Shown piece after piece: positions 10,595 through 43,368 of a stretch of DNA of 64,000 bases. Within the stretch, counting starts at the first letter, position 1. Each line of letters opens with the position of its first letter. The stretch is taken from the NCBI GenBank assembly GCA_030704615.1, contig CM060733.1:50840001-50904000 (forward strand), given 5' to 3'. A model generated the notes under the pieces. The model made no database searches, was not told the DNA's origin, and saw only the letters and a list, made by a program, of their open reading frames with translations. The translations under genes were made by a program, and so were the position numbers. This DNA comes from Takakia lepidozioides. Taxonomy: Eukaryota > Plantae > Bryophyta.

Positions 10595-10679
10595 TGTCGT
10601 GCGCATACATATCGCTATACAACTGCATCGCTATCCAAAACCACACAATACATATGCACGCCACACACTAGTATACCAC

Positions 10680-12387: not shown

Positions 12388-13900
12388 CTATCCTAAGCAG
12401 TGTGGACATAACCAATCTCCATCAGGAACCCTCTCAAGAGGTGGTGTCAAGCATCCCATATGCCAACCTCTTGAGCATCGATCACACACCAGCATGGTGG
12501 CTGCCCCTTTGGCAGACCCACAGAGCATGCACCTCAAACCTGCAAGTACCACTGTCAAGTTTGGGTCAACTCTGCCATCGACATTGGGAAGGTGACATGG
12601 CGCACAATTACGCACATGGTCTTTCCAAGTCATGCCATCCCAACCCTCCAAGATCAGGACTCCTGAGGGCAACACCTCTCGAACCCTCAGAATAACACGC
12701 CCTGCAGTGACATCCAGGGTCGTAGAGGTAGTCTGCTGCAAATAAACATAGTCATCCGGGCTAAACCGCCGAACCCCAGGACAATATCCTCCACCACGTA
12801 TAGTGGCATACCTCAACATATCACGGTGCTGTGCAATGGCAAGGTTCTCAAAAGCCATGGGCATGACTTTCTTGAACAACTCTGCACGCTGATCACATGC
12901 ACGTACCCACACGTCTGGATCGTCAAGGTTAAGGACTTGAGCAGTGTCCCTACGAAAGGCTGCAGACAAATCCGGCTCTCGGCCAAAGAGAAGGAAATAT
13001 GGTGAGAAGGAGGCAAGTGATGCTTGTTTGCTGAACCTGTAGCCCGTGGCTAACCAAGACACCTGAAGATCCCAATCTCCTAGGTGTCCCTTCTGCAAGC
13101 CATACTTGCGCAAACCCCTCTTCACCATCTGAACAACTCTCTCTGCCAAGCCATCGGCCTCAGGATGATCCCGAGAAGTGGTGCGGTGGTCTATCAAGGC
13201 TTTATCACATAAAGCCTGAAATTCCCCCAAGAACTCTCTCCTTTGGTCCGTGAGTACCTCAGCTGGAACACCGAATCGGCTAAGCACACGATCCAAGAAT
13301 GCTTACGCAGCCCCCTCACTAGCCTTGTCAGGCAATGGAACCAACTCAATCCACTTGGAGAAGTGCTCCACCATCACCAACACATATTTGTGGTGGCGCA
13401 TAGTCAGTGGCAACGGTCTTGCGAAGTCAAGACTCCACCTGTAGCCCAATCCCATGATTAATAAAGGATGCAACTGTGGTGTAGGGGCATTGAATGAAGC
13501 ACGCACCCTGTCACACACCATGCACCTAGCCACGAACTGTTGCACCTCTGTATGCATACCACGCCACCAACACTGCCCCTGCAGTAAACTGTGAGTGCGT
13601 CGCACTCCAAAATGCCCCAACTCCTCATGGGCATGCCGCACTAACCGTGCACGCTGTGTGGGGTGAGGCACAATCCTCACCCGACCATCCTCCCATACTC
13701 GGAGCGGGTGTATCTCCTCCCACTTGAACCTCTTGTTGCATGATCTGATCCCTCTCCTTGGCAGTCATAGTGGCTGCCGTGTCTCCACTACGGAGGTAGT
13801 CCAACACAGCCGAATCCTCATGTATATCTCGGGTACCACCTGGCTCATCACTAGCCTCAGGGTCCTCAGACACTCCGTCTACAGTCATCCCTGTTGTAGG
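12388..13900 (-). pseudogene. Integrase (HHCC, DDE) with C-terminal PHD finger, frameshifted
   Basis: HAHEELGHFG...CMVC, WSLDF, VLTDQ, GLAERVV, CMLC...CDRC...H..C...WLCPHC. Confidence 0.92.
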
Positions 13901-15141
13901 AGATGGGAGCAGTTCCGTGGGTGGCAATGCTAGTACATGACGTCCCTGGACTAGCAAAATATTTGGGCATAGCCTTACCAGACAAAAGGCACGAGTGCCC
14001 TTGGGAGGACACACAAGGTAGTAGCCATTAGTGTGGTCCGCTGGGCGACCTTGGAACGTGCCTGCATTGATGAGGTTAAACCATCTGGATTTCGGATGTG
14101 AAATGAGAATTATGTGGAGTTGTCTAACTTCTTGGTTATGTCTAGTTACCCATAACCCATGAATTATGGGGTGGTCGCAGTGGGTATGGCCATTTGTCTA
14201 TTTGGGGATTTTGGGATGAACATAATATGCAATGTTTATTAGGATATAATAATGGCCAGAACAAGTTCCGTCATTGATTGCCCAGGTATTGACCATACTG
14301 AATAGTGTGTTTGATTTGTGCATTAGCAACAGTGGGGGATGTCCAAAAATGATTGGACATACTGTGTAGCAGGTGTGGGGATGAGACCCACTTAGATATG
14401 TAGGAATTTATGTAGGTGCGGGATTCTTGTATGAGTACCTTATGAGTACCTCTTTCACAATAACCTCGTGGTGAGGCTGTGAAGACGGGTTTTGTAGCTG
14501 GATGAGGTTTTCATTTCCTTGCAAGGCATGATTTAGGGGCGTGCAGCTCAGGAAACAGCATGCAATGCTATGGCAGAAACAGAGGTACATGTAGAGGAAC
14601 GATACAGAGAGTCATGAATGTCAAGTATGCTAGAGAAACACCCCATCCACAAATCTGTAGCAACACCAGTATACCAGGCTGTACATACGAAAAGTAATCC
14701 CTTTACTCAAGGTGAGAGTGACCACATACCCCAAACTCCAGGTTGGAATGAGCCACTATATGGCAGCATCAGGCCAAGTAAATCCCCTGCATCTTGGCCA
14801 TAGAACCATGAAAGGTTGGGATGCAACCAGCTTTACATAGGGTTACACAGTATGGGCCAAGCAAGGTGTAATGGCTCAACGCCGTCTTCTACTAAATGTC
14901 GAGGATGAACTCCAACAGATGGGGAGAAGAACATACCACACCAAAAATGTAGGAGGATTTGACCCCCAGAATCATCTGGGTTACACTCAGTGCACTTATC
15001 TAACTGAGTTAAATGAGCTACTGACTGGTGGTGGTATCCTAGCAGTTAAAAAAACCCGTTTGCGCAAGAACAATTCACGGTGATATGGGTATGAATCACG
15101 GACATAGGGTCGATTACATGGTCTATGCATTCATATTCTTA

Positions 15142-20331: not shown

Positions 20332-21254
20332 TTAAGGTAGTTGTTTGCCAAATGGAGGTTGGGTAGCACGTCCGCAAGCTCGCGCCTCACCTCTGTAAGC
20401 GTGCATAAAAGGACATACCAACAATTTCAAGAATACTCTTTTAAAAAACTTAGGCAAAACTAAAATGTGCTCACGCCATACAAAATGCAAAACTTTTTGA
20501 AATGTTTGCTCACATGAGCACAAGTCACTCAGCTGGGGCTTGACGAATTTTTTGTTTCTTAAACCATGCTTTTTGATTAATTGTTGTATATTTTATCATG
20601 TAATGATGTCCCTAATATGCAAAAGTAGTCATAGTTCATTTTGTTTTGTCCACAAAATTGTTGGATAATGACCTATTGCAACAATCGCATAAAATTTCAT
20701 GAATAAAATAAATCAACCTGACCAACAAAGATGTCATCTAGTTTTTCTTAATATAATCCGAGAAAATCTAGATTCCTGAGTTTTTGGGCTAGTTAAAACC
20801 CCTTGTGTGCTTGACATTATTAGATTATCGAATTAACTATTTGATTATTTGTGTGTTTTGGATGGTATTCATATTTGTGACTTTGTTTTTTCTACTGTAT
20901 TATTATTTCGCAGAATATCAATTTGTAAATATATGGAACTTAGAGCTTGTAAATTATATACAATAAGAGAGCCTATTCGCGCAAACCGGTTATTACCATA
21001 CCTACGTACGTTGTCCGATGATAATTAAATCCAAAACCAGAGTGCCAAGAAAATCTAACTAGAGTCCTTCTAATGTCGGATGTCACACGTATTTGACCCG
21101 AAGACCTGTTCTACCAAATTCTCGCGTATTTGTTTTTATTATTTATCACTAGGGCTTCTGGTTGCTCCGCACTACTAGTGACGACTTCTGATAGTTATGT
21201 TCAAGTTTACAATAAAAAAGGACCATGGATCAATCGCAAGAAAAATAGTGGACT

Positions 21255-21603
21255 TGTCAAGTTAAATAAGCACAGTGTGAAACTAGCTAGAATAAAGCTA
21301 GTTATTTGTATTTAACACTTGGATTTAGGTCAAGTGTTAAATCAGGTGTCAAGTTTAGTTTGACACCTGACCCGTCTTATCTTCACGAGAGCGGCAGTCG
21401 CGCAGCTCATCTCTCTCGAGTTGAGCCTGCGCGACCGAGCTCCTGCATGCGTTTAGATCTGAGTGTACTCATGATGGGAGTGTAGGTTGTTGTGGGGTGG
21501 AGTCCCCATAGCTTGGGGTGCCCCTGGCTCGACTACTATTTCTAAGAGTGATGGTTTGGTTTTCATGTTTTGTGTCAACAGTGTGTTCGTTGGTTGTTTA
21601 TCA
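21255..21603 (+). repeat. Terminal repeat A1 (349 bp)
   Basis: Matches 32535-32883 with 2 C/T differences by manual comparison. Confidence 0.97.
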
Positions 21604-21617
21604 CTCGAGAGAGATGA
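21603..21617 (+). promoter_or_regulatory. Putative self-priming primer-binding site
   Basis: actcgagagagatga at the end of A1 is the exact reverse complement of 21407-21421; no TGG tRNA-type start. Confidence 0.7.
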
Positions 21618-21988
21618 TCTCTTACCTGTGAGTGCAAGGTAGGAGTTGAGGGTTAGCACTTGCAAGATTACCTGTGTGTAAGTAGTGCTTAGTTTGAGAA
21701 GCATATCATTGAATGTGATCACAAGATTCAGCGTGCCCTGAAACGCCTGGAGGATGACAATGCCGGAGCCGCCACTGTTATTGCAGTCGCTAAAGCTACC
21801 AAGTCACCAGAGGCTTTGGAGTACACGAGGAGAGACTTAAAAATGCAGCAGCAAATGCTAGTTGGCACCTATGCGTGATCCTTGAAGCTGGATGATTGTT
21901 TCCCCAGTAAGCTTATAGAGAAGCTTTACCGTGCAGCATGGAGCAGCGCTGGCAAGCGGTGAACGCTGATACTTGCACTCTTGCAGTC

Positions 21989-22070
21989 TTGGAGTCCAAG
22001 CTAGGACACGGGGAATATGACCGGTCAACAACCAAGGTGCTGCATTTGATCAACAATCCTGAAGCGGAGG
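21989..22070 (+). pseudogene. MAD1: Captured fragment of mitotic checkpoint gene MAD1
   Basis: Translates LESKLGHGEYDRSTTKVLHLINNPEAE, matching the recalled plant MAD1 segment LESKLGHGD...TRVL and the Mad2-binding motif KVLH..NP. Confidence 0.7.
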
Positions 22071-22568
22071 GAGCCCAGGCCACGGACTAGCTCGTCTCGT
22101 CTTACCCTGGGAGTGCAAAGGATGAATAGGTGAAGATTCTTTGGCAGATCAGAGCAGGGCGGAGCTCGTTGCGTTGACTGGCTAGCCGTTATATGGTCGA
22201 CAGTCGCTTAAGCTGCAGGGTTACGTTGCCGGGTGATCGATATTGTTTCCAGGTCTTCATTTGGTGGGCATGCCGGGAGCGTGGAGGTGTGAGGAGTGGC
22301 AGGGCTTTCATCAGTTGCATCTTTCTTAGCTGCTGTGTGTTTCACTAGTTGAACATCTTCGAAGCTGAATTACGGCTTAATTGGAAACCCGTACCCTGCT
22401 ACTTCTGCCTATCGAGGTTATGGTGGGGGTGGATCAGGAGGGCAGGTGTTCCAGCTCCAGTTGTGTGCATATGTAACCTACCTCCCCGTAATCTCTTTTA
22501 GTTCTCCTCTAGAAGAGGTTACTTACTTGGACTGACAGGACCTGGATCAGTCTGGAAGAAAGTTTGAC

Positions 22569-22859
22569 CTGCGAATAACGTCCGTCCTTGTGATCCTTCT
22601 TCATGTTCAAGAACCACTCAGGTATCTTGAACTGCCGGGGATTCGCGACAATCACCATCAAGTTCTCCAGCTCCGCACCCTACAGCTCACCAGCTCCCTT
22701 GCTGGTGTCGACGTCCGCCTTCTTGCAGACCAGGTTAGCGAAACGGCGCCCCACTCCCTTGATAGAGGTCAAAGCGAACATGATCTTCTGCCGTCCATCT
22801 ACATTTGTGTTGAGCACTCGCAAAATGTGCTGGAAATCTTCGTTGGCGATGAGCGACAT
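22569..22859 (-). pseudogene. RPS18: Captured fragment of 40S ribosomal protein S18 (uS13), codons 1-97, one internal stop
   Basis: [96 protein letters not shown]. Confidence 0.95.
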
Positions 22860-23598
22860 GGTGGATACCCGCGCAGCAGCGATCCTCGCGCTGTGCAGCT
22901 TCACAGGCAAGCGGCAAAGAGGCAAGGAGGCAGTAGAGTCGGCTGTTGGTGAGGCGAGATAGAAGCACTTTGGGTCTTCAATCCTGAGTACCTCTTTCAG
23001 AATATTAAATCCCAACAGACATCAATACATGTGGGAAAGACCTCATACCGCATGTATAAGCATCCCCAGCCATTGGAATGGCGTTGTGCGGCATAGTGAG
23101 GAGACGATGCAGGGCGTCCATGGCAGCGAGCACGCAAGAAGAAGCAAGTAGCACTGAAGACACATGATCGCAGTGAGGATCAGAAGGACCTAACAGCCCC
23201 AGTACTTGAGCGTTGTTCGACACCAGCTTGATTTTGCATAGACCTGGAGGGGAACGGCCTCGGGAACCCGTAGGTAACCTGGGAACAATTTTTAATGGCG
23301 AGAACGTTTTGGTGTTAAAAAAAAAAACAAAAAAAAGGGTTTTTTTTTAATCTAATTTGAATGATTTGGAGCCAAATTCATCGTATCTTTGTCAAATGGA
23401 CTCTGTTTGACCCAGTTTTTGGGGGGATAGCTGCAGAAAGGGGATATCTACCTATCTAGACCTGGTTTCTGTTTTGGGGACTCTGCTTAAAATCTATGGA
23501 ATTTTTAGAGTGTGAGTGTGCCACGAAATATCCACAATCCTGTTTCTAGAACCTGTGCTGGTCTATATGAGAGACAAACTTGTGGATGTACTCCTTGT

Positions 23599-24347
23599 AT
23601 GGCTGGGGAAAATGAGGACGTAATTGAAGGGCAGGTCTCTTATCTTAGCCTGTGCACACAAGGGGACAAGATTTATGTTTCCCAAGGAACTCAGACTGAT
23701 TTGAGTGGAGAACAGTTGGACGAGTTGATTGCATATTGGGAGTCAGGCATTAGCAGTAGACAACAGACTGCTGTAGTTGGCATTGAGGGCCTCAATATCG
23801 CCTTGGACAGTCAGAACTCTGTTGGAGCCAGCAGTTCTGCAGCTGTAGGTGAAATACCAAAGTGGGTGAAAGCTAGGCTTGGAACACAGCCAAAGACAGC
23901 CCCGGGACCAAGGTGTTCAGCCACAAGGCCGTGGTGTACTGGAGCAGAGGAGCAGGAGCTACACAAGTTTGTGCAATCAGACATGGTTGCAGCCGGATAC
24001 GCTCTGCACAGGGCAACCACGAGCGGGGGTTCATCAGCAATGACATGTTTGTTGTGCGTGAAGGAGATGCACTCATTCGCAATGAGGACACCCGCAACCG
24101 TCTCAAAGCTTTCGAGTTGAGAGACTATCAGACCCTACCTTTGTTTTCTTTAGTATTCAGTGAGCGGGAGATATGGGAGTATTGCTTTGTCTCTACCTGG
24201 CAGAAAGAGGAGGAGGGTTGGTTAGAGCGAGCTACTGTAGCTTGGGACAAGGGTAGTGGCAGGTTTCTGGACATAGATATACCTCCTACATCTTACCATC
24301 ATGCAGAGCGAGGCACTTTGAGAGAAGTCTGGCAGTTGATAGCATAG
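23599..24347 (+). pseudogene. Extra ORF upstream of gag (~250 aa with one frameshift), function unknown
   Basis: Overlapping ORFs 23512-24120 and 23913-24347 read as one globular-looking protein if joined near 24000. Confidence 0.5.
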
Positions 24348-24859
24348 ATCAGGATTAGATCTTGCTTGGTTGGGCTTCTATTCTTTGACTGGCCTCCACC
24401 AAGAGAGGCTTTGGCAACTACAAGTACTTGGTAATGAAAATAGTACAGAGATGGAGGGGGTTTTGGGCTGGGCTATTCTGCAGGATCAGCATTGCAGCTG
24501 GATTTTGGTGTGGGGGTGTTGATGTTTTGATTTCTTGTGTTTGGATCCCCCCCAACACCTGCATGCTTGACTGTGCGCCATGTTGGTTTTGTGTGGGCGC
24601 TTGCTTTCATAGGGATTAGGCCGGATTTGATCACCGGTCAATCCTAGAGTATGCTGTCGGTGGTGAGGCTGGAGTGATGACCAGCAAGACCACCAGTGTT
24701 TCTTCTATGGTGAGGCTGGGTTGATGACCAGCCAACCATAGGAGTTCTTGCGGTGGATGCAGGTGCAGGTGCCCTGAGCCATTGGGATATGACCCTTAAA
24801 CTGCAACAGGGGCCCACCCGTGTCACTATTAGATTAGTACTAGAGCCTTATAGTGTCAC

Positions 24860-26665
24860 GTGGAGGAGGTGCACATTGTGAGTGTCATTACGGAGTTACC
24901 CAAGGGTTTTGAGGGGAGTACGGCTACAGGCAGTAACAGTGAGAGTGGGTTCACAAGACGAGGTATTCGGTTCAGACCACCTTCACCGCCACCCTCAATT
25001 ACTGTAGAGTCAGACACAGACTCGGAGGCTTCATCAACAGGTGTGCACTTTCATTCGCCATTGTTGTGGGACGACATGGAGGAGATGTATGGAGCTACCA
25101 AGGGGCATCGTAGGTACTCTGGAGCTGTGGGCACAATCGAGTTGGATGACTTTATCCAGGAGTTCGACAGCTGGTATGATTTGCAGCAGATGCGCAATCC
25201 ACAGCTATTCACCCCATTCATGGCGTGGAAGGGACTGTTCCAGCATTTGGAAGGCCCGCCTATGGACGATTACCACGAGTTCAGGCGAGGACATGAAGCA
25301 GAGATTTAGGAGTGGAGGATGTATTGGTCACCTGACTACGTCTCCATTACTCGAGGCACGACGCGACCAGTAGCTGCATCAGTACCAATAGCTCTCACTG
25401 CCAGCACCAGTAGTGGAGCAAGTAGTGCTGGTACTTCTGTAGGTGGTACCAGTTCAAAAGGTGCTACTACTCCTCCTGCCACGACTACAACGCATGTGCC
25501 TAGATTCAACCCGGTGGTGGAGTTCTTCCAGGAGTTGCGGAGGAACTACCAAGGTATACGGACAGAGAAGCTGCGAAGTTTGCAAGACTTCCAGCGCAAA
25601 CCCAGTGAGAGCCTGCGAGAGGCGTACACTCGTATGAGGCGCTTGATAAGTGTGACCCAAGGGGTTACTGAAGCTCAGGCAATCCAGTTTTGGTATGGAA
25701 TTCTGGACAAGGAGCTCAAGAGAAGGGTGCAAGATGCAACCCTGTTACAAGCAGCCCAACCCACATTAGCAGATGTGTTTATGCTGGCTGAGCGGATTGA
25801 GCTCAACATGGTGGAGGAGCGAGTTGTTACAATTGGATTTGGCAAGGACATGCCTGCACGGGGCACAGCTGTCAGCCCACAGGCACAAGGGACTGCCTAA
25901 CAGCGTGGTCAGGGGGGCAAGGTTGCCCAGCCCAAGTTCCATGGAGCTTACAGGGGACCTCAGGTGCAGAGGCCCGTGGCGTCTTTTGCAGGCCAACAAC
26001 AACCAGGGGTGATATGTTGGACATGTGGAGGACCCCATGTCAAGAGAGATTGCCCAGAGAGTGGCAGAAGGCCGGCACAAGCACAGCCTGCACAGTTGCA
26101 GTGTGGGCATTGTGGCAAGTATGGGCATGGAGATGCCTAGTGTTATGACTTGCATCATGAGTTGCGCCCAGGCCATTTCCAAGGGAACAATGGTGGCCGG
26201 GGGCGAGGTGGACCAACCCAGAGAGGACGAGGTGGTCGGGCACGAGGTGCAGGCCAAGGGCAAGCTCAACATGGCCAAGGACGCGGAGGTCAGGGTGTTG
26301 ATCAAGGCATGGCCAATCGGCTTCAGCAGCTAGAGCAGAGGCTCGCTGCCATGGCTATAGCTCAGGCGGTACCGGCTCCCAGGCGGGATGGTCCACCTCC
26401 TGCTCCTGAGGGAGGAGATATGGGAGGCATGGGATATTATGTGCGGAGCAGCACTACCACTAGAGCAGGTGGAGTCTGCTGCAGCCGTGACTCGAGGAGC
26501 AGCACGAGTTCCTGAGCCACGAGGTGCAGAGGTGGAATTGGATCCACAGCGTGGGGAGGCAAGCCGTCAGGCGAGGCTTCCTCAGTCATTCACATTGGCG
26601 GAGACTGTGTCGACGCCATCCATGGCACCTAGTTCTCGCCCGACTGTTACCGAGGCGGAGTTACT
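24860..26665 (+). pseudogene. gag with two zinc knuckles and RGG-rich region; stops and frameshifts
   Basis: LQDFQRKPSESLREAYTRMRRL (retrotransposon gag-like), CWTCGGPHVKRDC (~26015), CGHCGKYGHGDA*C (~26102). Confidence 0.85.
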
Positions 26666-27049
26666 ATGCCATTGGGGAGAGCTACACGTGCAGCACTGAC
26701 ACCTGCTACCAAGGCTAGTGCAGCCGGTGTGTTGTTGGGGGCAGCCACCTCTGTGTGTCAAGCCCCACTGTTCTCGGCAACCATGATTGCGACGCCGGGG
26801 GTAAGACCAACTGCAGTGTTCACACTAGCAGCAACACTCTGTGAGAGTGGGGAGGTCACTTCATCTTCTGCGGAGTTACTGGAAGGTGTAGTGGCAGAGG
26901 GATCCTCAGATTTGAGGGTCAAGACTGCCACGGCTGCGCCATGGCAAGTTGCAGCTGCCAGGTTGATGGAGCTGCCAGCTAGGCCAGCCTTTGAGCGCGC
27001 CATGGTGACACCTGGAGTTGTCTTGTTAGACAACCAGGGAGGCATTTTC

Positions 27050-27420
27050 ACTGTGAGTGGACCGGCAGACAAGAAGTACCGGCCACTGCGGGTCTTGTTG
27101 GACTCGGGAGCTCAGCCACTGATGTTGGGCAGAGCTGCTATTGCAGGTTTGGGCCTCATGGAGGCGGATATGGAGCCTTGTCCTTTCCAGATACAGACAT
27201 CTCTGGGAGGATCAGAGCAGGCTCGGGGCATGACACGGCAGCAGTTGGCCATTAGACTGCAGCCGGATCATCCTATCGATGGCTCAGTAATGCGAGCCAA
27301 GGCCATTGTGACAGACGCGGTCTCTTACGATGTCCTTGTGGGTGGGGCAGTGTTATACCCCATGGGCTTCACCCTGGACTTTTGGGAGGAGTCAGCATCC
27401 TACTGGCCTGGATGGCAGTC
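27050..27420 (+). pseudogene. Aspartic protease domain of pol
   Basis: RVLLDSGAQ...YDVLVG within ORF 26666-28465. Confidence 0.88.
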
Positions 27421-27814
27421 AGGCGATGATTGCCGTGCACAGCTCCCTGTGACATTCATTGGGGGTATAGCGGCTGCCCAGCGGGGCAAGATGCCAACAC
27501 TAGCCACCTTTACAGCTGCAGTTAGTTGGCCTGGAGAATTGCTGGAAGGCAATGCCCATGCAGAAGATGTGCCACCTCCAGCAGAGCAGGATGACATGCA
27601 TGGTATGGCGGAGTTGCCTGCCATGGTTGCTCACACTCCATTGTGGGGTACGAGCAAGGATTTGCAGAAGGTTGCTGATCGACGGGTGCAACAAGCCTGG
27701 GTAGAGGCTTTTGTACCGTCAGGAGAGGAGGAGAGTGCAGGTATTGCACCAAGACCACCTCAGTTGTCACCATTGGATACCACACCTATTGTGTGGCAGT
27801 ATCCGGATGAAGGC

Positions 27815-28760
27815 ATTTGCCTTCTGGACTTGTTTGGCGGGATCAGCACCGGATTGGCTGCTGTGCTACAGGCAGGTGTGCGGGTAAGGCGTTACCTGTA
27901 TGTGGAGAGGGATGAGACTGCACGACGCGTCTCACTTCGCCATGTTACTCAGTTGGTACAGCAGTACTCTGCTTTGTTGCCAGTGTCTGCAGTTCGTGGA
28001 TACCCACAAACCTTGCCAGCAGACATTTCGTTGCTGGGGGCGCCGGATTTGGAGCGGGTTGGCTCCATTGATCTGGTAGTGGCAGGTTGGCCCTGCCAAG
28101 GGCATTCATCAGCCGGGCATGGCAATGGATTGCGAGACTCGAGGACGGGTCTGTTTTGGGAGTTGGTGCGGATTTTGCGCCACTTGCAGCTTCATCAAGC
28201 TGTATTGCCAGCATACATCTTGGAGAATGTGCCACTGATGGGTGATTCTCGGGCCAAGGTGATGGCCAGAGTGCATCAAGTCCGGTCGTGGCTTGGGTCA
28301 GCAGTGTTGCTGGATGCAGCTGCAGTGGGGTCATGGGCTCATCGTCCACGGCTTTGGTGGACTAACTTGATGCCACCCGCACTACTCAAGCGTGCATTTG
28401 ATGGGGTGCAGCGGCCAGCACACCTCACCGTGGATGGCATTTTGGACACAGGGAGGCAGTCTTAACGTGTGAGACACGATGACCGTTCGCCTTTGGCAGT
28501 GGTCAACAGGGTGGGTCAACCACGAGCAGCATTACCTACACTGCTCAGCTTCCCAGGATCCCATGCTTTTGGGATGGTGGACCTGGCATCCTGTGGGATG
28601 CTCAGTTGCAGCAGTTAGTGAGCCTAATGCCGACGAGCGAGAGCGGGGTTTTCCACTGGGACCACGGCGGTGCCTTCTCTTTATGAGGCATCACGACGTC
28701 AAGTGTTGGGGCAAGCAATGGATCTCAATTGCTTGACCTGGATTATCAGCTTGGCTATGG
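27815..28760 (+). pseudogene. C5 cytosine DNA methyltransferase domain (DNMT3/DRM-like) inside pol; C-terminal third disrupted
   Basis: Motif I LLDLFGGISTG, II YVERD, IV DLVVAGWPCQG (PC at 28091-28096), VI YILENV (28223), VIII AHRPRLWWTNL, IX ERER-GFP, X RRQVLGQAM; TAA at 28463 and small deletions after it. Confidence 0.93.
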
Positions 28761-29212
28761 CTGAGCAACGTAGAGTGCGGAGTGCACTTACCTTGACGGT
28801 CTCTCTGCCTACCGAGACGGTACAGGCAGCAAGTGGGGGCGAGCCGGTGAGGACCACGGGGTGTAGACATCCATGGCACACGTGGGAGGTGCTCGAGGTC
28901 CAGAGGGAGTTGGCAGCCAAGACAGCTGTGATGGATGAGGTTGGGGATTCTTCTCGGGTTGAGGAGGTTCTCAATGATGAGATGATGGGGCAGGATGAGG
29001 CCTTGTCATTGACTGAGCAGGAAGGGAGTACTGCTCAAGAGGTTGCAGCATAGCAACCACGGGACGCGTCCTCTACCTCTAAGCCCATTGGACTTAAGGT
29101 TGCAGTTACGGAGGACAATTGGGAGCCTGACATTGGACCCATTGTCACCGGAGGAGAGAGACGACGTATACGGCGGTTCCTGAGGGCTTACAGGAATTGC
29201 TTTGTCTTCAGT

Positions 29213-30622
29213 TTGAAGGATTTGGGAGCACTGAAGGGTCAAGAGATCCGTATTGAGTTGGCCACTGACACGCCAATCTTTCGGAGACCCTATAGATACA
29301 GTGACATGGAGAGGTCTTTGATTCAGATGAGGACTCAAGATCTCTGGGAGGCAGGTTTGGTGGAGCTCTCTGGTGGAGAGTATGCTTCAGCCACAGTGAT
29401 GCCAGCCAAAAAGGATGTCTATGGCAATTGGACGGAGAGACGTATGTGCGGTGATTACCGGCTTGTAAATCGTCAGACCAAGTCCGATAGGTATGCCATG
29501 CCGACACCAGAGGAGATCTTTGATGCCATTGGGCATTCCAAGGTATTTAGCACGTTGGATTTACGATCCAGATATCACCAGTTGCCGATCAAGGAGGCGG
29601 ATAAGCAAAAGACGGCAATCTGGGGGATCAATGAGCACGGGAAGGATTGCCTGTACCAGTGGCGGTTCTTACCATTTGGGCTTAAAAACGCTCCCGCTGA
29701 GTTTCAAAGAGTCATGGACAGGATTCTAGCAGGGTTGAAGTTTGCTCGGTGCTACATAGATGACATCATCATCTTTAGTGCTACGGTGGAGGAGCATGAG
29801 AGACACCTTCAGGGGGTATTTGAGCGCTTGAGGGCGCACGGATTGAAGTTACATCCGGGAAAGTGCAAGTTTTTCCACAACCAGATTGAGTATCTGGGTC
29901 ACATGATATATCCTGGAGGATTGGGGGTACAGCAGACTAAGGTAGAGTCCATTGCACAGGTTCCACGCCCCACGGATGTGAGCCGAGTTCGAGCTTTCAT
30001 GGGGTTAACAAACTATTACAGACGGTTTGTTAAGGGATTTAGTGCCATTGCAAAGGCTCTAACCAAGCTGACCAAGGTGGACTAGGAGTGGCAGTGGGAA
30101 GATGAGCAAGAACAAGCTTTTCAAGAGCTCAAGGTGAGGTTGACCTCGGCGCCCATCTTGAGACGACCTATCAGGGGGCGTCCTTTTCAGCTGCATACAG
30201 ATTGGAGCATGCTGGGGCTTGGAGCGGTGCTCACACAGGTGGATGATGAGGGAAGAGAGTTCGTAGTGGCTTATGCTAGCCACTCGAACAATGCTGCAGA
30301 GTCTAAGTATAGCTCATATGAGGGAGAATGCTTAGCTGCAGTGTGGGCCGTGGCACACTTCAGGTGCTATCTATACGGCAATCTCTTCACCCTTGTCACG
30401 GATCACCAACCACTCAAGTGGTTGATGGAGTCAGACAAGCTTACGGGGAAGCTTGCACGGTGGGCACTCATCCTTCAAGAGTATGACTTTCAGGTGGTGC
30501 ATCGACCGGGTTTGGTCAATCGCAATGCAGATGGGTTGAGTCGCAATCCATGCACGAGCCAACAGGATGACACTGGAGCTCGGTGGCATGGTGAGACGGA
30601 CGAGGAGATGGTGCCCGGATGA
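29213..30622 (+). pseudogene. Reverse transcriptase and RNase H of pol
   Basis: RMCGDYR, FSTLDL, LPFGLKNAP, CYIDDI; LHTDWS...GAVL...EGECLA...LVTDHQPL...NADGLSR; in-frame stops at 30083 and 30620. Confidence 0.96.
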
Positions 30623-30646
30623 CATGCATCTGCATTTCTGTGTATC

Positions 30647-32188
30647 TTGGCAGCGGAAGGCCAGGTTGGACCTGCAACAGGGATGATTGTAGATCAAGTG
30701 TCTGAGGACCCTGAGGCCAGCAATGAGCAAGGTGGCGCCAAAGATATACATGAGGATTCAGTTGTGTTGGACTACCTCCGCACTGGAGACACGGCAGCCA
30801 CTGTGACTGCCAAGGAGAGGGATCGGATCCTACAACGAGCCAAGAGGTTCAAGTGGGAGGGGACACACCTGCTCCGAGAGTGGGAGGATGGTCGAGTGAG
30901 GATTGTGCCTCACCCAACACAGCGGGCACGGTTAGTGCACCATGCCCATGAGGAGTTGGGGCATTTTGGGATGCGACGCACTCATAGTCTACTGCAGGGG
31001 CAGTACTGGTGGCGTGGTATGCACACAGAGGTGCAACAATTTGTGGCTAGGTGCATGGTGTGTGACAGGGTGCGTGCTTCATTCAACGCCCCTACTCCAC
31101 AATTGCACCCTCTTCCGATCATGGGATTGGGCTACAGGTGGAGTCTTGACTTTGCAGGGCCGTTGCCACTGACCATGCGCCACAACAAGTACGTGTTGGT
31201 GATGGTGGAGCACTTCTCCAAGTGGATTGAATTGGTTCCATTGCCTGATAAGGCTAGTGAGGGAGCTGCGTATGCATTCTTGGATTGTGTGCTTAGCCGA
31301 TTCGGTGCTCCAGCTGAGGTACTCACGGACCAAGGGAGAGAGTTCTTGGGGGAGTTTCAGGCGTTGTGTGACAAGGCCTTGATAGACCACCGCACCACTT
31401 CTCGGGATCATCCTGAGGCCGATGGCTTGGCAGAGAGAGTTGTTCAGACAGTAAAGAGGGGTTTGCGCAAGTATGGCTTGCAGAAGGGACACCTAGGAGA
31501 TTGGGACCTTCAGTTACCCTGGTTAGCCATGGGCTACATGTTCAGCAAGCAAGCATCACTCGCCTCCTTCTCACCATACTTTCTTCTCTTTGGCCGAGAG
31601 CCGGATTTGCCTACATCCATTCGCAGAGAAACTGCTACAGTTCTTAACCTTGACGATCCGGACGTGTGGGCACGTGCATGTGAGCAGCGTGCAGAGTTGT
31701 TCAAGAGAGTCATGCCCATGGCTTTCGAGAACCTTGCCATTGCACAACACCGTGATACGTTGAGGTATGCTACCATACGTGGTGGGGGCTATCGTCCTGG
31801 GGTTCGGAGATTCAACCCTGGTGACTATGTCTATCTGCAGCAGACTGCTCCTACGACCCTGGATGTGACTGCAAGACGTGTTATTTTGAGGGTTCGAGAG
31901 GTCTTGCCCTCAGGCGTCTTGGTCTTGGAGGGTCGGGATGGCATAACTTGGAAGGACCATGTGCGTAATTGTGCGCCATGTCACCTTCCGAATGTCGATG
32001 GCAGGATTGACCCAAACCTGGCAGTGGTATCTGCAGGTTTGAGGTGCATGTTGTGTGGGTCTGCTAAAGGGGCAGCCACCATGCTGGTGTGTGATCGATG
32101 CTCTAGAGGTTGGCATATGGGATGCTTGACTCCACCTCTTGAGATGGTTCCGGATGGGGATTGGTTATGTCCACGATGCATTGGATAG
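30647..32188 (+). CDS. Integrase (HHCC zinc finger, DDE core) with C-terminal PHD finger (32045-32179)
   Basis: Open frame: HAHEELGHFG...CMVC, WSLDFAGP, VLTDQGREF, DGLAERVV, FNPGDYV; C4HC3 CMLC..CDRC...H..C...WLCPRC. Confidence 0.95.
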   Translation: MAAEGQVGPATGMIVDQVSEDPEASNEQGGAKDIHEDSVVLDYLRTGDTAATVTAKERDRILQRAKRFKWEGTHLLREWEDGRVRIVPHPTQRARLVHHAHEELGHFGMRRTHSLLQGQYWWRGMHTEVQQFVARCMVCDRVRASFNAPTPQLHPLPIMGLGYRWSLDFAGPLPLTMRHNKYVLVMVEHFSKWIELVPLPDKASEGAAYAFLDCVLSRFGAPAEVLTDQGREFLGEFQALCDKALIDHRTTSRDHPEADGLAERVVQTVKRGLRKYGLQKGHLGDWDLQLPWLAMGYMFSKQASLASFSPYFLLFGREPDLPTSIRRETATVLNLDDPDVWARACEQRAELFKRVMPMAFENLAIAQHRDTLRYATIRGGGYRPGVRRFNPGDYVYLQQTAPTTLDVTARRVILRVREVLPSGVLVLEGRDGITWKDHVRNCAPCHLPNVDGRIDPNLAVVSAGLRCMLCGSAKGAATMLVCDRCSRGWHMGCLTPPLEMVPDGDWLCPRCIG

Positions 32189-32436
32189 TGGGAGTGGATA
32201 CAACCATGGAAGGCTAACAAGCAACGCAAGGCCCAGCTACAGGAGACCTTGAATACACGAAGTCCTGGCTCAAGTTCACAGATTGCAAGACGGCGACTAA
32301 CGATGGGGCTACTCTTGTACCCGGCCTCTTGGTCTATAGAGTTTGAGTACGATAGGGACAGTGATAGAGGACTTAGTACGGCTATGGCTATTACGTTTTG
32401 TAGCTATCTGGAGGTAGAGGGACCTATCCACCAGCT

Positions 32437-32446
32437 AGGGGGGCGA
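32437..32446 (+). promoter_or_regulatory. Polypurine tract
   Basis: aggggggcga directly before B1; the same motif precedes B1 in the second element. Confidence 0.8.
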
Positions 32447-32532
32447 TTGTGGTAGACTACTTTATTGTGCATGTATGTGTGGTGTAGTTTGGACAGCGAT
32501 GTAGTTGTGTTGCGATACGTATGCGCACGACA
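32447..32532 (+). repeat. Repeat B1 (86 bp)
   Basis: Matches 32884-32969 with 2 differences. Confidence 0.95.
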
Positions 32533-32534
32533 GC

Positions 32535-32883
32535 TGTCAAGTTAAATAAGCATAGTGTGAAACTAGCTAGAATAAAGCTAGTTATTTGTATTTAACACTT
32601 GGATTTAGGTCAAGTGTTAAATCAGGTGTCAAGTTTAGTTTGACACCTGACCCGTCTTATCTTCACGAGAGCGGCAGTCGCGCAGCTCATCTCTCTCGAG
32701 TTGAGCCTGCGCGACCGAGCTCCTGCATGCGTTTAGATCTGAGTGTACTCATGATGGGAGTGTAGGTTGTTGTGGGGTGGAGTCCCCATAGCTTGGGGTG
32801 CCCCTGGCTCGACTACTATTTCTAAGAGTGATGGTTTGGTTTTCATGTTTTGTGTCAACAGTGTGTTTGTTGGTTGTTTATCA
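32535..32883 (+). repeat. Repeat A2 (349 bp)
   Basis: Copy of A1; separated from B1 by gc. Confidence 0.97.
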
Positions 32884-32969
32884 TTGTGGTAGACTACTTT
32901 ATTGTGCATGTATGTGTGGTGTGGTTTGGACAGCGATGTAGTTGTGTTGCAATACGTATGCGCACGACA
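32884..32969 (+). repeat. Terminal repeat B2 (86 bp)
   Basis: Abuts A2 directly, ends cgaca, followed by TSD gact. Confidence 0.95.
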
Positions 32970-32999
32970 GACTGTTTCCGCAGCTATCACGTCTCCGTA

Positions 33000-33529: not shown

Positions 33530-35650
33530 TATGTTTCATGACGCATTTTCCGTGTCAAATTGTTCATCTTTGGAATTTATTTCTATGATGTCGAGTGGTG
33601 TGGCCTGTGGGAGATAATTCTGAGTAAGCTCGATTTTCAGAATTGATTGTTTTCATGGTTTGAAATGGTTCATTTGATTCTATTGGTGTGGGATGTTTTA
33701 AATTATGGATGTTGTTTAGGAGATTTTTGCCTCATTTAAGCATCATTGAAAAGAAGTTGTAGCCTTTTAGGGTGACCCTATAGTTACGCAAGAGGTTTTT
33801 TTTTTTTTTTTTTCCTTTAAGCGAAGGGAAATCATATTGTTGATCACTAAGGCAAAGATTGCTGATTACAGGCGTGCCTTACCATTCCGTGTCTCTGGCC
33901 TCCAACAATGCCTAGTAAAAGAATGTAGGTGCGCCACAGGGTGGCAAACATCGACCATAGCTCTTATGTGAGGTTCAGCCCCCCTCTTATTTCATGGGCA
34001 CTGTACACCAGTTGCTCTGTTTGTCTGCTTGGATGATTTTACACAACCACCAACTATAGGCAGTGCCCATGTTCCTATCTCCAACGGATCTTGTTGTGAT
34101 GATGCATCAGAGACCATAAGGGCTTCTTTTAGTATATGCAAACATGGTCTGCTCCTTCTTTGTCTCTAGGAAATGCCTACATCCTGAAACAAGCACTGCA
34201 GTCAAAATCCTCAAGTTTGATGTCTTGGCCAGTTTGGGGAATGTTTCCGCGTGAGCCCATAAGCACGTGAGTGTAGCCAGGCTCACGCCACGTCAACATT
34301 ATTTTGATTGTAGAGAACCTAATTCCGCGGAAGGAAAGTCGATTTGCAACGCCTCCGGTTGTCCACCTTTATCGGAAATGTTCCTTCCCCATCCACATTC
34401 AGGACGGATGAGAAATCCACGAGAGGACTGCAAATGAGAAAATTCCGAAGTTGAAGGCCAACCTCCCAAAAAATCATGTGTTGTTTGTAGTCACGTGGAA
34501 ACTTGCAAATTCTCTGCAGCGTAAGAAAATATGTAGTCCATTCCGGAAACACCAATCTTCATCCACTTTTTATTTTCGAAATATTGTGTTAAAAAATATG
34601 TCGTCTTTTACATGGAAGGTATTGAGTGTGCAATGACTCGATTGATGGCACAGTAGCAAGGGCTCCTGGACTGCGATCATAGGTGCGTGTTGCACATTCC
34701 TGTTTCACATGCCTGCATTCTTTCCCTTCCATTTGGGAGTTAGTTGCTTCTCCGGCTCTTTTGTGACGAGTGCTTGTATGAGTCTCTCCTGAATGTCCTT
34801 GTCAGTGCATGGTGCAAGCGCTGCGGCGTTGTCATTTATGTTCCTCAACTCGACCTCATCAAATGATATGTCTTGTTTTGGAAGGTCAAGATACCACCCG
34901 CAGTCTCTGAAGTGCGCTGTCAACTCCAGTCTTTGTCAATCCCAGCTGTATACATTGTCTTGTCATTTGATGGGTCCGCCATGTGTAGATGAAATCAGGG
35001 TCATCGCTCAGATACGTCCCCGGAATGAGGATATGGTAGATGTACCTGAATCATACATTCAGAAAACACAGATACAGCCAGTGCTTGTTAACTCCCATTA
35101 AATCCACTTGTTATCAATATTGCGTTGACGCAAGGTTGATCCCCAACGAAACACTAAGCAAGACAAAGATTTATCTCCCAAAAGAGGCAATTGAAATCCA
35201 TAGCATAATCAAGGTTGCGTTGACGCAACCTTGATTGTGTCCAACACAACGAAGAACAATTGTAATATCGGGTTGGTGTTTCTAAACCGGCCCTTGAAGA
35301 ATTAGCAACCTACTTGGGCTATACTCGCAACTGTGTGTCAGTCTTCAGAGCTAATGTCCGCAGCTTCAAGAATTTTTGAAGGGGGGTGAGGTCAATGCTG
35401 GCCTCACTTTGCTCTCTCAACTTTGTGGGCCTATGATACGTAATATTCATTGCAACAGAGTAAAATTGGAGAGAGAAACCATCTTGAGGGTGTGGAAGAT
35501 TTGTGCCCTCGGTTCTTTTGGAATCATTGCTAAATCTCTCCCGTGAAGCACTCTTATAGTTTCCAAGTATATTTCTCTTTAGCCATAACAATTATTTTTA
35601 TATTAAAAATGAACAAATAAAAAATTCCTCCTCAGTGTCTATATAGTTTT

Positions 35651-36294
35651 TGTCAAGGACAAGAACATGACTAAACACAAACAAAAGATAAAACTAGAGG
35701 TAAAATGCTAGACAAGAAGTCAAGATCGGCGTGGCCGAATGCACGATAAGTAAATAGGAATCAAGACGATCTTTATAACAATGAACAAGAGTACAAGATA
35801 TTGGAACACGACTTGAATACTGAAATGCTGGAAACTGGATTGGAGTACCAGATACTGGAAACTGGGCTAGAGTACTGGGGATTGGACTGGAGTACTGGGA
35901 ACTGGAAACAAGAGTAGCTTGAACTGGTGTTGGCGAGACTGAAGAGTATCTAGTCTCGCCTCATATATATATTGGCTACTAAGAAGCTTCCCCAAGAAGC
36001 TTCCCCTATGGAGGTTTCTTGCTGGAGAAGTTTCCAAGATTAAACAAAGGTTTCTTGATGGAGAAGCTTCCTTAAATAAATGAGGTATCTTGATGGAGAA
36101 GTTTCCTCCAAAGGAAGCTTCCTAAGTAGTTTCCCAAGTTACTCTTGGTAATTTGGTAAACTCCCGGTAACTTGGTAAGTAATGATAAATCATGGTAGAT
36201 CATGGTAAATCACGGTAAGTCATGGTAACTTTCGGTAACTTGGTAACTTCTGGTATTTACTCTTGGTAAATTCTTTTGGGCTATGTCCGTGACA
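35651..36294 (-). repeat. 3' LTR of chromovirus (644 bp) with internal ctggaaa and ggtaa short repeats
   Basis: Direct repeat of 38465-39097. Confidence 0.95.
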
Positions 36295-36898
36295 TCACCC
36301 CCTCCTCTAGCGCCGAGTTCCTCGAGGAGCGGTAAAATCTTGGACTTGCTTAGAGTTGGAGAAAATCCAAAATCCGGCGAATGATACTTGCCAAGTATTC
36401 GGCTGTTTGTTCTTGACTCAAATGATTTATAGGTCCCTGCAACCATCGATAGTGTCCAACACCTGGAACTTGGGACCACGCAGTGATTTGAGCATTCTGA
36501 TTTTCGAAGCTGCCTTCAAACATGATTTCGTTGCCCTTTGGGTCCGAAGCCTCAACCTCTAATAGAATTATCAGACTTCGAGTAGGCTCCATTTGCCGTC
36601 GTACGGGGTTCAGATGAGGAAGTACGTGTCGCATTGGTGGCCTATCGTCTCGAGAGCGTCGGCGTGATGTTGAAGGTCGTGAGAGTCGGAATGGCTGATC
36701 TGGTAGTTGGGCAAGCGACAACTCCAATGTATCTGGTTCCTGTGACTTTATACTGCCAATACAAGATGCAAGAGTGCTGGAAGTGTAGCTATATATACTG
36801 ATGTGTGGTGCTTCTCCCTCCTTAGCGTGTATCAGGTACATTGAATGTGGAGTCTACACCTTGAAGCTAACTTGGCTGACATCATCGTTGTAACGTCT

Positions 36899-37086
36899 TA
36901 TTGACGTGTAGCTCGGGGCTTAGCTGGATATCGTTGATGAAACTCTTGGACTTTGTCAGATGCATTGACGAGGTTGGATGAAGGTTCTCACGTTCGTTCG
37001 CTGATATCATAGCATTTCCAATGTACGAAATACTCAAGACATTTATACTTAATGCGAGAGTCTAGGACTTCGTCGACTTCATACTC
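36899..37086 (-). pseudogene. Chromodomain from integrase C-terminus
   Basis: EYEVDEVLDSRIKYKCLEYFVHWKCYDISERT*EPSSNLVNASDKVQEFHQRYPAKP. Confidence 0.88.
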
Positions 37087-38464
37087 AAGTTGTTGATTGA
37101 CTTCGACTGGTTGGAGACTGGATGACATTGAAAACAATATGTGATGCTTGATCTTTAAGCTTCACTTCAAGTGATCGAGTTTCATGATCCACATTTCCTG
37201 ATGCTAACGGTCGTCCATCGATGACTTCAACGGGGGCCGAGAGTTTCTTCTTTACGAGCGTTAAATTGTGTTGCTTTGCAAAGTTTTTGTCCATAAAACA
37301 AGCTGAAGCTCCTGACTCCAAAAGTGCTTCTACAACGATATCTCGATTTTGCACTCTGATTTTTACCGGAACTGTGAAGCAAGGTGCAGGGTCTGGAGGT
37401 AGAAAGTTTCCGACCTCCTCGTATCGAACACTTGAGTTGTGCCCCGAACTTTGAATCTTTCCTTGTTGGGGCAGTTTAATGCTATGTGATCTTCTTCTCC
37501 GCAATAGAGGCATAATCCATTCGAGCGCCGTCTTTGTTTTTCTTGTGGCGTCAATGGTTTGAATCGGACAACATCAATCTGCATAGGATCACTACTGGAT
37601 GTCTGATGGATCGTTGTATCTGGTGTCGTAGTAGCAGTGACATGATGCGTCGTCGACCATCTAGATCGCTTCTCTTGACGTCTTTCGAACAAACGATTAT
37701 CGCATGCAATGACTTGGGTGATGAATTCATTCAGTGTGCTAACGTTTGGCATTGTTAGCAACAAATCTTTTACATCATCTTTTAGTCCACATCGAAACTG
37801 ACTAATGAGGCTATTCTCATTCCAGTCGAGGTCGCACGCAAGTTGTCGAAATTCGGCAGCATAAACGGAAGCAGGACGTGCTCATTGTCGAAGATTTCGC
37901 ATCTTTGTTTCTGTAACTCTCTTTCTATCATTTTCTCTAAACGTTGCAGTGAACTCAGACATGAATGCTTCAAAATTATATAATAAATACAATTTTTTTT
38001 TTCTAATAGCGGTGCAAACCAAGATAGGGCAGTGCCTGATAGAAGGGTGCCCATGAATCCCACTTAAATACCTTCATCGGGGTAGCGTTGTGGATGTAGT
38101 CGTAGGAACAGTCGTACTTGTTGAACAGAATCGCGAAATCTTGATCTCGTCCCATCAAATTTCTCGGGCATGCTGATCTTTGGTTCTCTCGTAATCTGTT
38201 GAAGATGAACCGTTGCAGTATGAGCTGTTGCAGTAGGGACTCGTATGGTTGAAGATCCATTGTTCGACTCCTTTAACTCTGAAATTTGTTGTTGCAAATT
38301 GTGGAGAGCGTTGCCAAGATCTTGAGACTGATCAGCTTGCAATTGGGCGGTAGATGTACGAAGTTCTTGCATCTGGAGCTGAAGACTTTGCAATATGGTG
38401 ACCATTTCCGCAAATGTGCCTTCCATCTTAACTAACTAAAGAACAAACTTCAGTCTCGCCAAAT

Positions 38465-39097
38465 TGTCAAGGACGAGAACATGACTGAACACAAACAAGA
38501 GATAAAACTAGAGATACAATGCTAGACAAGAAGTCAAGATCGGCGTGGCCGAATGTACGATGAGTAAATAGGAATCAAGACGATCTTTATAACAATGAAC
38601 AAGAGTACAAGATATTGGAACACGACTTGAATACTGAAATGCTGGAAACTGGACTGGAGTACCAGATACTGGAAACTGGGCTAGAGTACTGGAAATTGGA
38701 CTGGAGTACTGGGAACTGGAAACAAGAGTAGCTTGAACTGGTGTTGGCGAGACTGAAGAGTATCCAGTCTCGCCTCATATATATATTGGCTACTAAGAAG
38801 CTTCCCCAAGAAGCTTCCCCTATGGAGGTTTATTGCTGGAGAAGTTTCCAAGATTAAACAAAGGTTTCTTGATAGAGAAGCTTCCTTAAACAAATGAGGT
38901 ATCTTGATGGAGAAGTTTCCTCCAAAGGAAGCTTCCTAAGTAGTTTCCCAAGTTACTCTTGGTAATTTGATAAACTCCCGATAACTTGGTAAGTAATGAT
39001 AAATCATGATAGATCATGGTAATTACGGTAAGTCATGGTAATTTGGTAACTTCTGGTATTTACTCTTGATAAACTCTTCTGGGCTATGTCCGTGACA
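38465..39097 (-). repeat. 5' LTR of chromovirus (633 bp), TATA-like tract ~38777-38786
   Basis: Direct repeat of 35651-36294. Confidence 0.95.
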
Positions 39098-42533: not shown

Positions 42534-43368
42534 ATGTGCATCATAATCTTCCATTGTATTTATGTTTGAAAGGAGGAAGCTTATTGGACTGACCATAACC
42601 GGCTTACATTGCTTTCAAACTACAAAATCTCGTACCTTAATTTCTATTCTCAGACAGAAAAATCTGAAAATAAAATTAAAAAAAATTCAATCATATAATA
42701 GTCTCATTTGAATTAAATAGAACATATAATATAAATTAAATAATATATAAGCAGATACTACAATATACTGAAAACCACCAATAAATTCCCAATATTTCAT
42801 TTTAATCAAACCCTTCCAAAAAAAAGAAAAAAACATGTTTTCATACATAGGTACCTATTCGATTTAAAAGTTAAAGATTATCTAAAATACATTGAAAACC
42901 AAACTAAGTACAGTGTAGCCATAGATGCGTCTTGTTAAAACAATGTTTCATCCATCCCAAGATCGTCCCTGCAGCGTGACAACCAACAGTTAGCGGTTAG
43001 CCCTTTTCTTCCTCAAGCCTGCTGTGTGGCTCTGTCTCTTCACTGATCTCTAAGACATGCAGGTATATATGGTCACAGATCTTTCCACAGAGACAGTTTA
43101 CTCATGTAACCCGACCCAAGAGATGCTGGCAGCTTAGCAGAGCTTCGAGTATTTTGAATGGCACTGAGTCCTTTTGATTTGGTCTGCTGCAAGAGAAGAA
43201 GCTGAAGACACGAAAGGGAGGTTGCGATGAGCTTCGCCACAAGTCCGTGAGGTAACAACAAGATCAGCAGGTTCTCGTGTTGCAAATTGATGCTGGTATT
43301 ACTCGTTTATGCATTTTTCAGTGAAGATGTAGTCGTATGAGCACCGGTGGGAGATCAGCGAGGGAGAA

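Follow-up and report, generated by a model that had tools for sequence, protein, structure and literature searches.

Why a transposon would keep an enzyme of the kind that silences transposons has been a question since 2018, and the sole Gypsy example, KnitGypsy-Dnmt3 of the alga Klebsormidium nitens, failed in yeast. The same question is raised by a locus of the bryophyte Takakia lepidozioides, which we analysed within a stretch of 64,000 nucleotides (GenBank assembly GCA_030704615.1, contig CM060733.1, positions 50,840,001 to 50,904,000 of the forward strand; hereafter the window, whose own numbering is used throughout). Here, a DNMT3-like cytosine methyltransferase (DNMT) lies within a retrotransposon of the Gypsy type. 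On balance, we consider it likely that this is a high-copy element with the order Gag, protease, DNMT, leaky stop and Pol, in which the DNMT is made at capsid level and methylates the element's own complementary DNA (cDNA). New here are the spread of such elements in bryophytes, the Gag-linked DNMT behind a readthrough-type stop, and an att-like junction together with a 4-bp target duplication; DNMT-bearing Gypsy elements were known from one alga. The family is also present in Marchantia polymorpha, where genetics and methylome tools exist, so that the question becomes directly testable in a land plant.

DNMT3-like domain of the element

In motif content and order, the window domain is DNMT3-like, unpermuted, intronless and borne by the element. 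A preliminary description of the locus had reported a single open frame running from the protease through methyltransferase motifs I-VIII with the catalytic residues intact, and this is what we find: a stop-free frame of 610 amino acids (26633-28465) contains LLDSGA and then motifs I (LDLFGG), IV (GWPCQ), VI (ILENV) and VIII (AHRPRLWWTNL). The damage described at the 3' end of the domain is likewise present, with a stop at 28463, frame breaks near 28566, 28619 and 28644, and motifs IX-X beyond. Two details did not hold. The span had been given as starting at 26666, but the ATG there is not a family start: contigs of sister copies vary at the frame breaks near 26436 and 26659, and in homologues Gag, protease and DNMT form a single protein. 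The motif given as ExER..GFP straddles a frame break, and the homologous frame reads GFSTG.

Database comparisons agree with this assignment. The domain scores above the Pfam cut-off for PF00145 (E 3.4e-12, 46.9 bits versus a cut-off of 22), as the check proposed earlier had anticipated. Its best sequence matches in the PDB are DNMT3A/3B (E 4e-9, residues 3-186, in unpermuted order). HhaI (3e-4) and DRM2 (2e-4 or weaker) trail well behind, which bears out the earlier preference for DNMT3 over permuted DRM. The circularly permuted DRM type is ruled out by the motif order I-IV-VI-VIII-IX-X. For a Marchantia homologue (P0003, residues 878-1200, a relative and not the window copy), the AlphaFold model has a pLDDT of 90, and its top Foldseek matches are DNMT3A/B (TM 0.73). 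In IMG/VR, 18 loci gave methyltransferase matches, all of them distant and short (24-42% identity), and the first match in the ESM Atlas was a Streptophyta DNA-methylase cluster that is possibly the query's own. We note that our DNMT tree (FastTree) contains bacterial outgroups only and long branches, and that its root is unreliable.

Conservation and selection among relatives

Judged across copies and relatives, the DNMT domain is a family trait under purifying selection. In sister-copy contigs from four public runs, which represent at most three samples (X1 and X3 share a sample), the summed depth of the DNMT was of the same order as that of the reverse transcriptase (RT) and integrase, with the reservation that depth is no copy number. 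Homologue searches returned 45 and 81 proteins, and the named hosts were Marchantia polymorpha, Calypogeia fissa, two Sphagnum species and Closterium. A profile search gave 525 clusters (50% identity) at E 1e-30 or better, from a nameless library in which some may not be element-borne. The catalytic Cys, the motif VI Glu and the second Arg of motif VIII are retained in all 80 aligned DNMT domains; among the best 150 representatives, Cys and Glu are retained in every one and RxR in 149. The conditions under which the preliminary description would have been refuted, a one-off insertion or a family lacking the catalytic residues, do not hold. In P0255-P0401, motif VI often reads ENT or ENA, with the catalytic Cys and Glu persisting.

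The ratio of nonsynonymous to synonymous substitution (dN/dS), which the preliminary description had proposed as a check, points to purifying selection. The open loci L016, L017 and L018 give a DNMT ratio of 0.10-0.13, beside 0.11-0.15 in the protease and, from one pair, 0.04 in RT. The window DNMT differs from its relatives by a dN of 0.23-0.28, and synonymous sites in these comparisons are saturated or nearly so. When decayed Sphagnum-like copies are paired, dN/dS is 0.33-1.29, as expected after insertion.

The earlier view that such a domain is not standard in land-plant Gypsy lineages holds only in part, as the DNMT is not exotic in seed-free plants and goes unannotated in many Marchantia models. 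We observed many Marchantia "hypothetical protein" models with PF00145 (P0003, P0004, P0006-P0008, P0012-P0014 and others) that are probably pieces of this retroelement, some of which bear a methyltransferase name in UniRef. Such models could inflate counts of host methyltransferases.

The conserved stop between DNMT and RT

The preliminary description had the DNMT fused inside Pol, between protease and RT, and proposed that it would be packaged with Pol. RT does follow the DNMT, but the frame does not run on into it: a TAG at 29051-29053 that is conserved in the family intervenes. The DNMT instead closes the open reading frame (ORF) of Gag and protease, upstream of this stop, and in the window lineage it would belong to a Gag-level product and be packaged as part of it.

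Comparison of copies and related loci indicates that the TAG at 29051 is a conserved family feature and not decay. Across the four runs, with every bin covered, none of the 22 variant rows for 28880-29180 places a variant in 29051-29059 at a frequency at or above 10%. In the 40 of 879 variant rows considered, four other stops of the window copy (25307, 25898, 26138 and 30083) differ in nearly all sister contigs; two more lie at 28463 and 30620. Run X7, possibly RNA, crosses the TAG unchanged. Among metagenome loci in which the DNMT precedes RT, a stop stands at the homologous place in 31 of 33, a count that requires the DNMT end and so excludes L021, L033, L045 and L052; of the two loci off the count, L011 is without the region and L013 ends early. 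The acidic tail between DNMT and stop spans 80-117 codons in undamaged relatives and is in the frame of RT. In L017, 1369 open codons (protease, DNMT) are followed by TAG CAG TTA and then by 1047 open codons (RT, RNase H, integrase, PHD finger). When 134 proteins were classified, 33 were Gag-protease-DNMT and 22 protease-DNMT without RT, and complete ones mostly stop 50-180 residues past the DNMT.

A stop followed by CARYYA is a plant readthrough signal, with a ratio of short to long product of ~10:1 in tobacco mosaic virus (TMV) (PMC2754532, PMC5397192). The exact CARYYA follows the stop in the window and in L004, L016, L017, L018 and L048, in three spellings (CAACCA, CAATCA, CAGTTA). The context is rare: of 208 stop triplets in the coding region one has it, and across the whole window it follows 10 of 5543. 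It is quite probable, given this context, that ribosomes read through the conserved TAG part of the time. The arrangement resembles TMV-type UAG-CAR-YYA readthrough, where an amber stop with CAR YYA behind it separates an abundant short product from a scarcer long one. Such readthrough has been shown in RNA viruses, with gypsy elements of rice named as candidates only (PMC2754532); here it is predicted from sequence. Our literature search, which left most subscription journals outside, found no paper on the DNMT/RT stop of such elements.

Element layouts among relatives

Relatives differ in where the DNMT lies, and we distinguish three layouts. Elements with layout (i), in which Gag-protease-DNMT is followed by a stop and Pol, form one RT clade (UFBoot 100; 27 of 45 sequences) that includes the window, Marchantia and Sphagnum-like loci, and FastTree on all 45 agrees. 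Layout (ii), with the DNMT continuous with RT, occurs in P0077, P0078, P0082, P0095 and Closterium P0032, all outside the layout (i) clade. Layout (iii), RT-RNase H-DNMT-integrase-PHD, accounts for 94 of the top 150 representatives and forms one DNMT clade (FastTree 0.94); its loci are GC-richer, and we guess that its hosts are algae. In a large sister class (L034-L047, L049, L050; P0035, P0038), one long frame holds RNase H, DNMT and integrase in that order, and L038 and L040 read Gag-protease-Pol without a stop upstream of RT. Either the DNMT domain moved within one element family or it was regained from kin; the layout trees have no reliable root. The conserved stop predicts enzyme dosage, at Gag level in the window branch and at Pol level in the others, which provides a natural comparison.

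Proposed role of the DNMT and alternatives

Under the mechanism that we propose, most ribosomes would halt past the DNMT, and protease and DNMT would be made with each Gag, while RT, RNase H, integrase and PHD finger would be made only upon readthrough of the stop. The protease would free the DNMT within the particle, where the new cDNA would be the first double-stranded DNA that the freed enzyme meets, and would be methylated. The chances are slightly better than even that the cDNA is methylated before integration, probably at CG by analogy with SymbioDIRS-Dnmt3 of Symbiodinium. More tentatively, and with odds that we place clearly below even, these may be a distinct and ancient set of green-lineage retroelements, with hundreds of families that lack annotation, which combine a PHD reader, an active methylation writer and circle-junction integration without a tRNA primer; in bryophytes, the leaky stop would make the DNMT an abundant particle protein, each new copy would arrive already methylated, and the element could write methylation in land-plant genomes without the host machinery.

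Several observations weigh against self-methylation by a Gag-level enzyme. CpG in the element is 0.49 versus 0.29-0.38 in host genes, so its depletion is no stronger than theirs and composition gives no footprint of self-methylation; more broadly, flanks and host genes are equally or more depleted in CpG and CHG, which makes depletion uninformative on this point. KnitGypsy-Dnmt3 produced no methylation in yeast, a result that its authors consider inconclusive, as human DNMT3B failed too (PMC5890265). The existence of layouts (ii) and (iii) means that Gag-level dosage is not needed across the whole family. Motif IV reads EC in 87 and PC in 53 of the best 150 representatives. Regarding the stop, the context in 24 of the 31 loci that carry it is CAACCC, which departs from the consensus at one base (the stop itself being TAA in 8 of the 24), in two further loci CAR is replaced by TAG or TAA, and the search pattern for the context was widened after the sequences had been inspected. 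The CAACCC loci, which are one redundant family and Sphagnum-protein-like by eye, have an ATG 3 codons past the stop. No shared RNA structure 3' of the stop was found in 91-nt folds of seven sequences, made with no shuffle control.

The alternative that survives best, although we consider it unlikely, is that the excess of DNMT acts in trans or after integration and methylates host chromatin, competing elements or the site of insertion, and not particle cDNA. A DNMT upstream of the stop is uncoupled from RT and integrase, and its dose would rise; in addition, the host DNMT3 of moss methylates CHH (PMC8566409). However, relatives that fuse the DNMT to RT-RNase H, or set it between RNase H and integrase, fit action on cDNA, and the K. 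nitens methylome is not aberrant (PMC5890265).

A second alternative concerns how Pol is made. Pol could come from spliced or subgenomic RNA, or from re-initiation, with the stop a true terminator and the DNMT still linked to Gag, which we regard as quite unlikely. Gene models from Marchantia and Sphagnum join DNMT to RT and skip the stop site, but they do so at differing points, as annotation artefacts would. Ogre elements splice out their stops. Re-initiation would be served by the early ATG of the Sphagnum-like family, and the first Met is also close to the stop in L002, L018 and L016 (codons 3, 5 and 14), making re-initiation possible in some elements. The first Met lies at codon 48 in L004, at codon 85 in the window and at codon 117 in L017; in the latter two it is already inside RT, leaving no Met before the RT motifs start. 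Both splicing and re-initiation are opposed by the frame, which continues past a single stop while the lengths on either side of it change in multiples of a codon, and by the retention of the CAR-YY context between elements only ~50% identical in protein.

Very unlikely, in our assessment, is that the DNMT domain is kept for RNA methylation or for a non-catalytic role, such as holding or protecting nucleic acid within the particle. The negative yeast result with KnitGypsy-Dnmt3 would suit such a role, as would the replacement of PC by EC and of the motif I Phe by Cys in many relatives, but even very distant members hardly vary in the catalytic Cys, Glu and Arg, and fold and sequence are nearest DNMT3 and not DNMT2. 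That the window copy alone picked up a host DNMT3 fragment, a form of the one-off insertion considered in the preliminary description, has nothing in its favour and a negligible probability given even sister-copy coverage, the shared position in liverwort, peat-moss and Closterium elements, purifying selection, and the lack of introns or separate boundaries around the DNMT.

Element structure and integration

The window copy of the element is dead (Table 1). Besides the DNMT, it has a C-terminal PHD finger and split direct repeats, both absent from the preliminary description. It departs from the canonical long terminal repeat (LTR) layout in that two full body-flanking LTRs are absent and the order is A-body-B-A-B instead; TG...CA ends, a 4-bp duplication, a polypurine tract and a DDE integrase are canonical LTR traits that it does have. 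The other complete copy, L024, has an equal repeat layout and its own 4-bp duplication, AAGG, so that a 4-bp target duplication is present in both complete copies compared. The CGACA-GC-TGTCA junction is shared by both window copies, L005 and L016, with variants in L024 (TGACA-GC-TGTCA) and L017 (GT spacer). Inspection of the window, L005 and L024 by eye showed no tRNA-type (TGG-type) primer site behind A1.

Table 1. Features of the window copy of the DNMT-bearing element
Feature	Position	Strand	Evidence or remark
Whole element	21255-32969	+	A-body-B-A-B split direct repeats, TG...CA ends
5' target-site duplication GACT	21251-21254	+	Identical 4-mer 3' of the element, 32970-32973
Split direct repeat A1, begins TGTCA	21255-21603	+	99.4% identity to A2 across 349 nt
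5' leader, 3.5 kb	21604-25075	+	Holds antisense RPS18-like fragment; no match among loci L001-L098
gag with zinc knuckles	25076-26368	+	tblastn with Marchantia P0003, 54%; broken by stops 25307, 25898, 26138; PF03732 match E 3e-4, under cut-off (Pfam scan)
Aspartic protease, LLDSGA	27083-27370	+	Motif seen directly; ~60% identity to named homologues; Pfam matches sub-threshold only (E 0.05)
DNMT3-like C5 cytosine methyltransferase	27809-28765	+	Motifs I-X unpermuted; broken in window copy
Acidic tail closing ORF1 (Gag-protease-DNMT)	28766-29050	+	95 codons, in RT frame
In-frame TAG, then CAACCA	29051-29059	+	CARYYA readthrough context; conserved in sister contigs and related loci
Reverse transcriptase, Ty3/Gypsy-like	29153-30082	+	PF00078 E 4e-32; best PDB match Ty3 RT, E 1.5e-46
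RNase H	30086-30490	+	PF17917 E 1e-36
Integrase zinc finger and DDE core	30914-31414	+	PF17921 E 9e-16, PF00665 E 4e-14
C-terminal PHD finger and Pol stop	32045-32188	+	PF00628 E 1e-10
Polypurine tract directly 5' of B1	32437-32446	+	AGGGGGGCGA; also in second window copy, L005, L024
Split direct repeat B1, terminates CGACA	32447-32532	+	96.8% identity to B2
Internal B1-A2 junction CGACA-GC-TGTCA	32528-32539	+	Both element ends abutted, 2-nt spacer
Split direct repeat A2	32535-32883	+	99.4% identity to A1
Split direct repeat B2, terminates CGACA	32884-32969	+	3' duplication GACT next, 32970-32973

The split repeats and the 4-bp duplication suggest that integration takes an unusual route. The A-body-B-A-B layout would arise if a cDNA bearing long B+A repeats circularised and integrase opened the circle at a B-A junction; a linear route of integration would also be possible. 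From the junction, we give integration via the abutted CA-GC-TG of circular cDNA an even chance. Foamy-virus integrase cuts palindromic LTR-LTR junctions of circular DNA (PMC1180852). Unlike in foamy virus, the junction here is hard-coded inside the element (B1-A2) and the integrated form is permuted, and we infer the mechanism from sequence alone.

The PHD finger may also bear on where copies insert. Its nearest solved counterparts are the PHD fingers of CHD4, PHF12, KDM5B/5A and PHF21A. Fingers of CHD4, PHF12, KDM5 and PHF21A are readers of unmethylated H3K4, and a PHD finger with this specificity would steer insertion off active promoters. Whether the element's finger indeed binds H3 tails unmethylated at K4 and directs insertion toward silent chromatin is, to us, an evenly balanced proposition. 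In having a histone-reader domain at the integrase C-terminus, the element resembles chromoviruses and PHD-transposon fusions (PMC6317226; 10.1101/2021.11.30.470311), but unlike in chromoviruses a PHD finger replaces the chromodomain. A text search of the REXdb paper (PMC6317226) found no "methyltransferase", "PHD" or "Marchantia".

Two further observations concern the element and its relatives in the window. Antisense in the 5' leader, at 22543-22859 (-), lies an intronless fragment of the ribosomal protein S13/S18 family (PF00416 E 2e-13, one stop), which is either a captured host cDNA or a later insertion. A second copy, from a related family (88.5% over 1.8 kb) and truncated at its 5' end, is found at 10590-14200 (-) with integrase, PHD finger, B1, A2 and B2; ~840 bp of other DNA splits its B2, and the CGACA-GC-TGTCA junction is retained.

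Comparison with known systems

The closest described element is KnitGypsy-Dnmt3, which carries a DNMT3-like domain in Pol and DIRS-like repeats, with a Ka/Ks below 0.2 (PMC5890265). We compared it by description, and no match named K. nitens was among our homologues. The two elements share an intronless, unpermuted DNMT3-like domain, the Gypsy set of Gag, protease, RT, RNase H and integrase, DIRS-like A1...B1 A2 B2 repeats, and purifying selection (0.10-0.13 here). The authors place the DNMT of KnitGypsy-Dnmt3 in the ORF of RT and RNase H and its acquisition "in the K. nitens lineage" (PMC5890265). The DNMT of the window family, by contrast, is separated from the RT/RNase H ORF by the conserved stop; P0077, P0078 and the RT-RNase H-DNMT-integrase class do share that ORF. 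Land-plant hosts and high copy number also set the window family apart. The main text on KnitGypsy-Dnmt3 does not mention a PHD finger, target duplication or readthrough. A preprint (10.64898/2026.05.21.726589) and a further paper (PMC12344493) refer to Gypsy-DNMT3 of streptophytes, with land plants unnamed in the parts available. We found no paper on bryophyte or other land-plant members, and the supplements of the streptophyte papers may list more hosts.

SymbioDIRS-Dnmt3 is similar in being a retrotransposon with a DNMT3-like domain and a split-repeat architecture, and its de novo CG methylation has been demonstrated in yeast (PMC5890265). It differs in belonging to the DIRS class, in being an independent capture according to its authors and in its dinoflagellate host, whereas the window element has a DDE integrase. 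Assignment of the window element to DIRS, PAT or Ngaro was rejected on the presence of an rve integrase and on the lack of any recombinase family in the 12 element frames scanned. DIRS-class elements use a tyrosine recombinase. Troyka was also rejected, having CG...CG ends, a 3-bp duplication and animal hosts only, compared with TG...CA ends and a 4-bp duplication in the window element.

Other features of the window

The remainder of the window contains further transposable elements and host genes. In a tree whose sample had no hornworts, a 279-residue part of the glycosyltransferase encoded at the 3' end of the window falls within bryophytes (UFBoot 97), outside the liverwort clade (99) and beside Sphagnum, Ceratodon and Physcomitrium; with a shorter part, FastTree joins it to mosses at 0.86, so that sequence alone makes a moss host likely. 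A small LTR element at 35650-39097 (-) has 645-bp repeats (95% identity), contains no frames other than gag- and protease-like ones, and is probably non-autonomous. At 8881-10536 (-), there is a LINE-type reverse transcriptase frame of 551 codons, judged by motifs. A multi-exon host gene with TPR repeats and an open stretch of 717 codons occupies 43333-50126 (+) and may resemble a flagellar TPR protein. At 60037-64000 (+) lies a host glycosyltransferase gene of the TOD1/MUCI70 type (DUF616).

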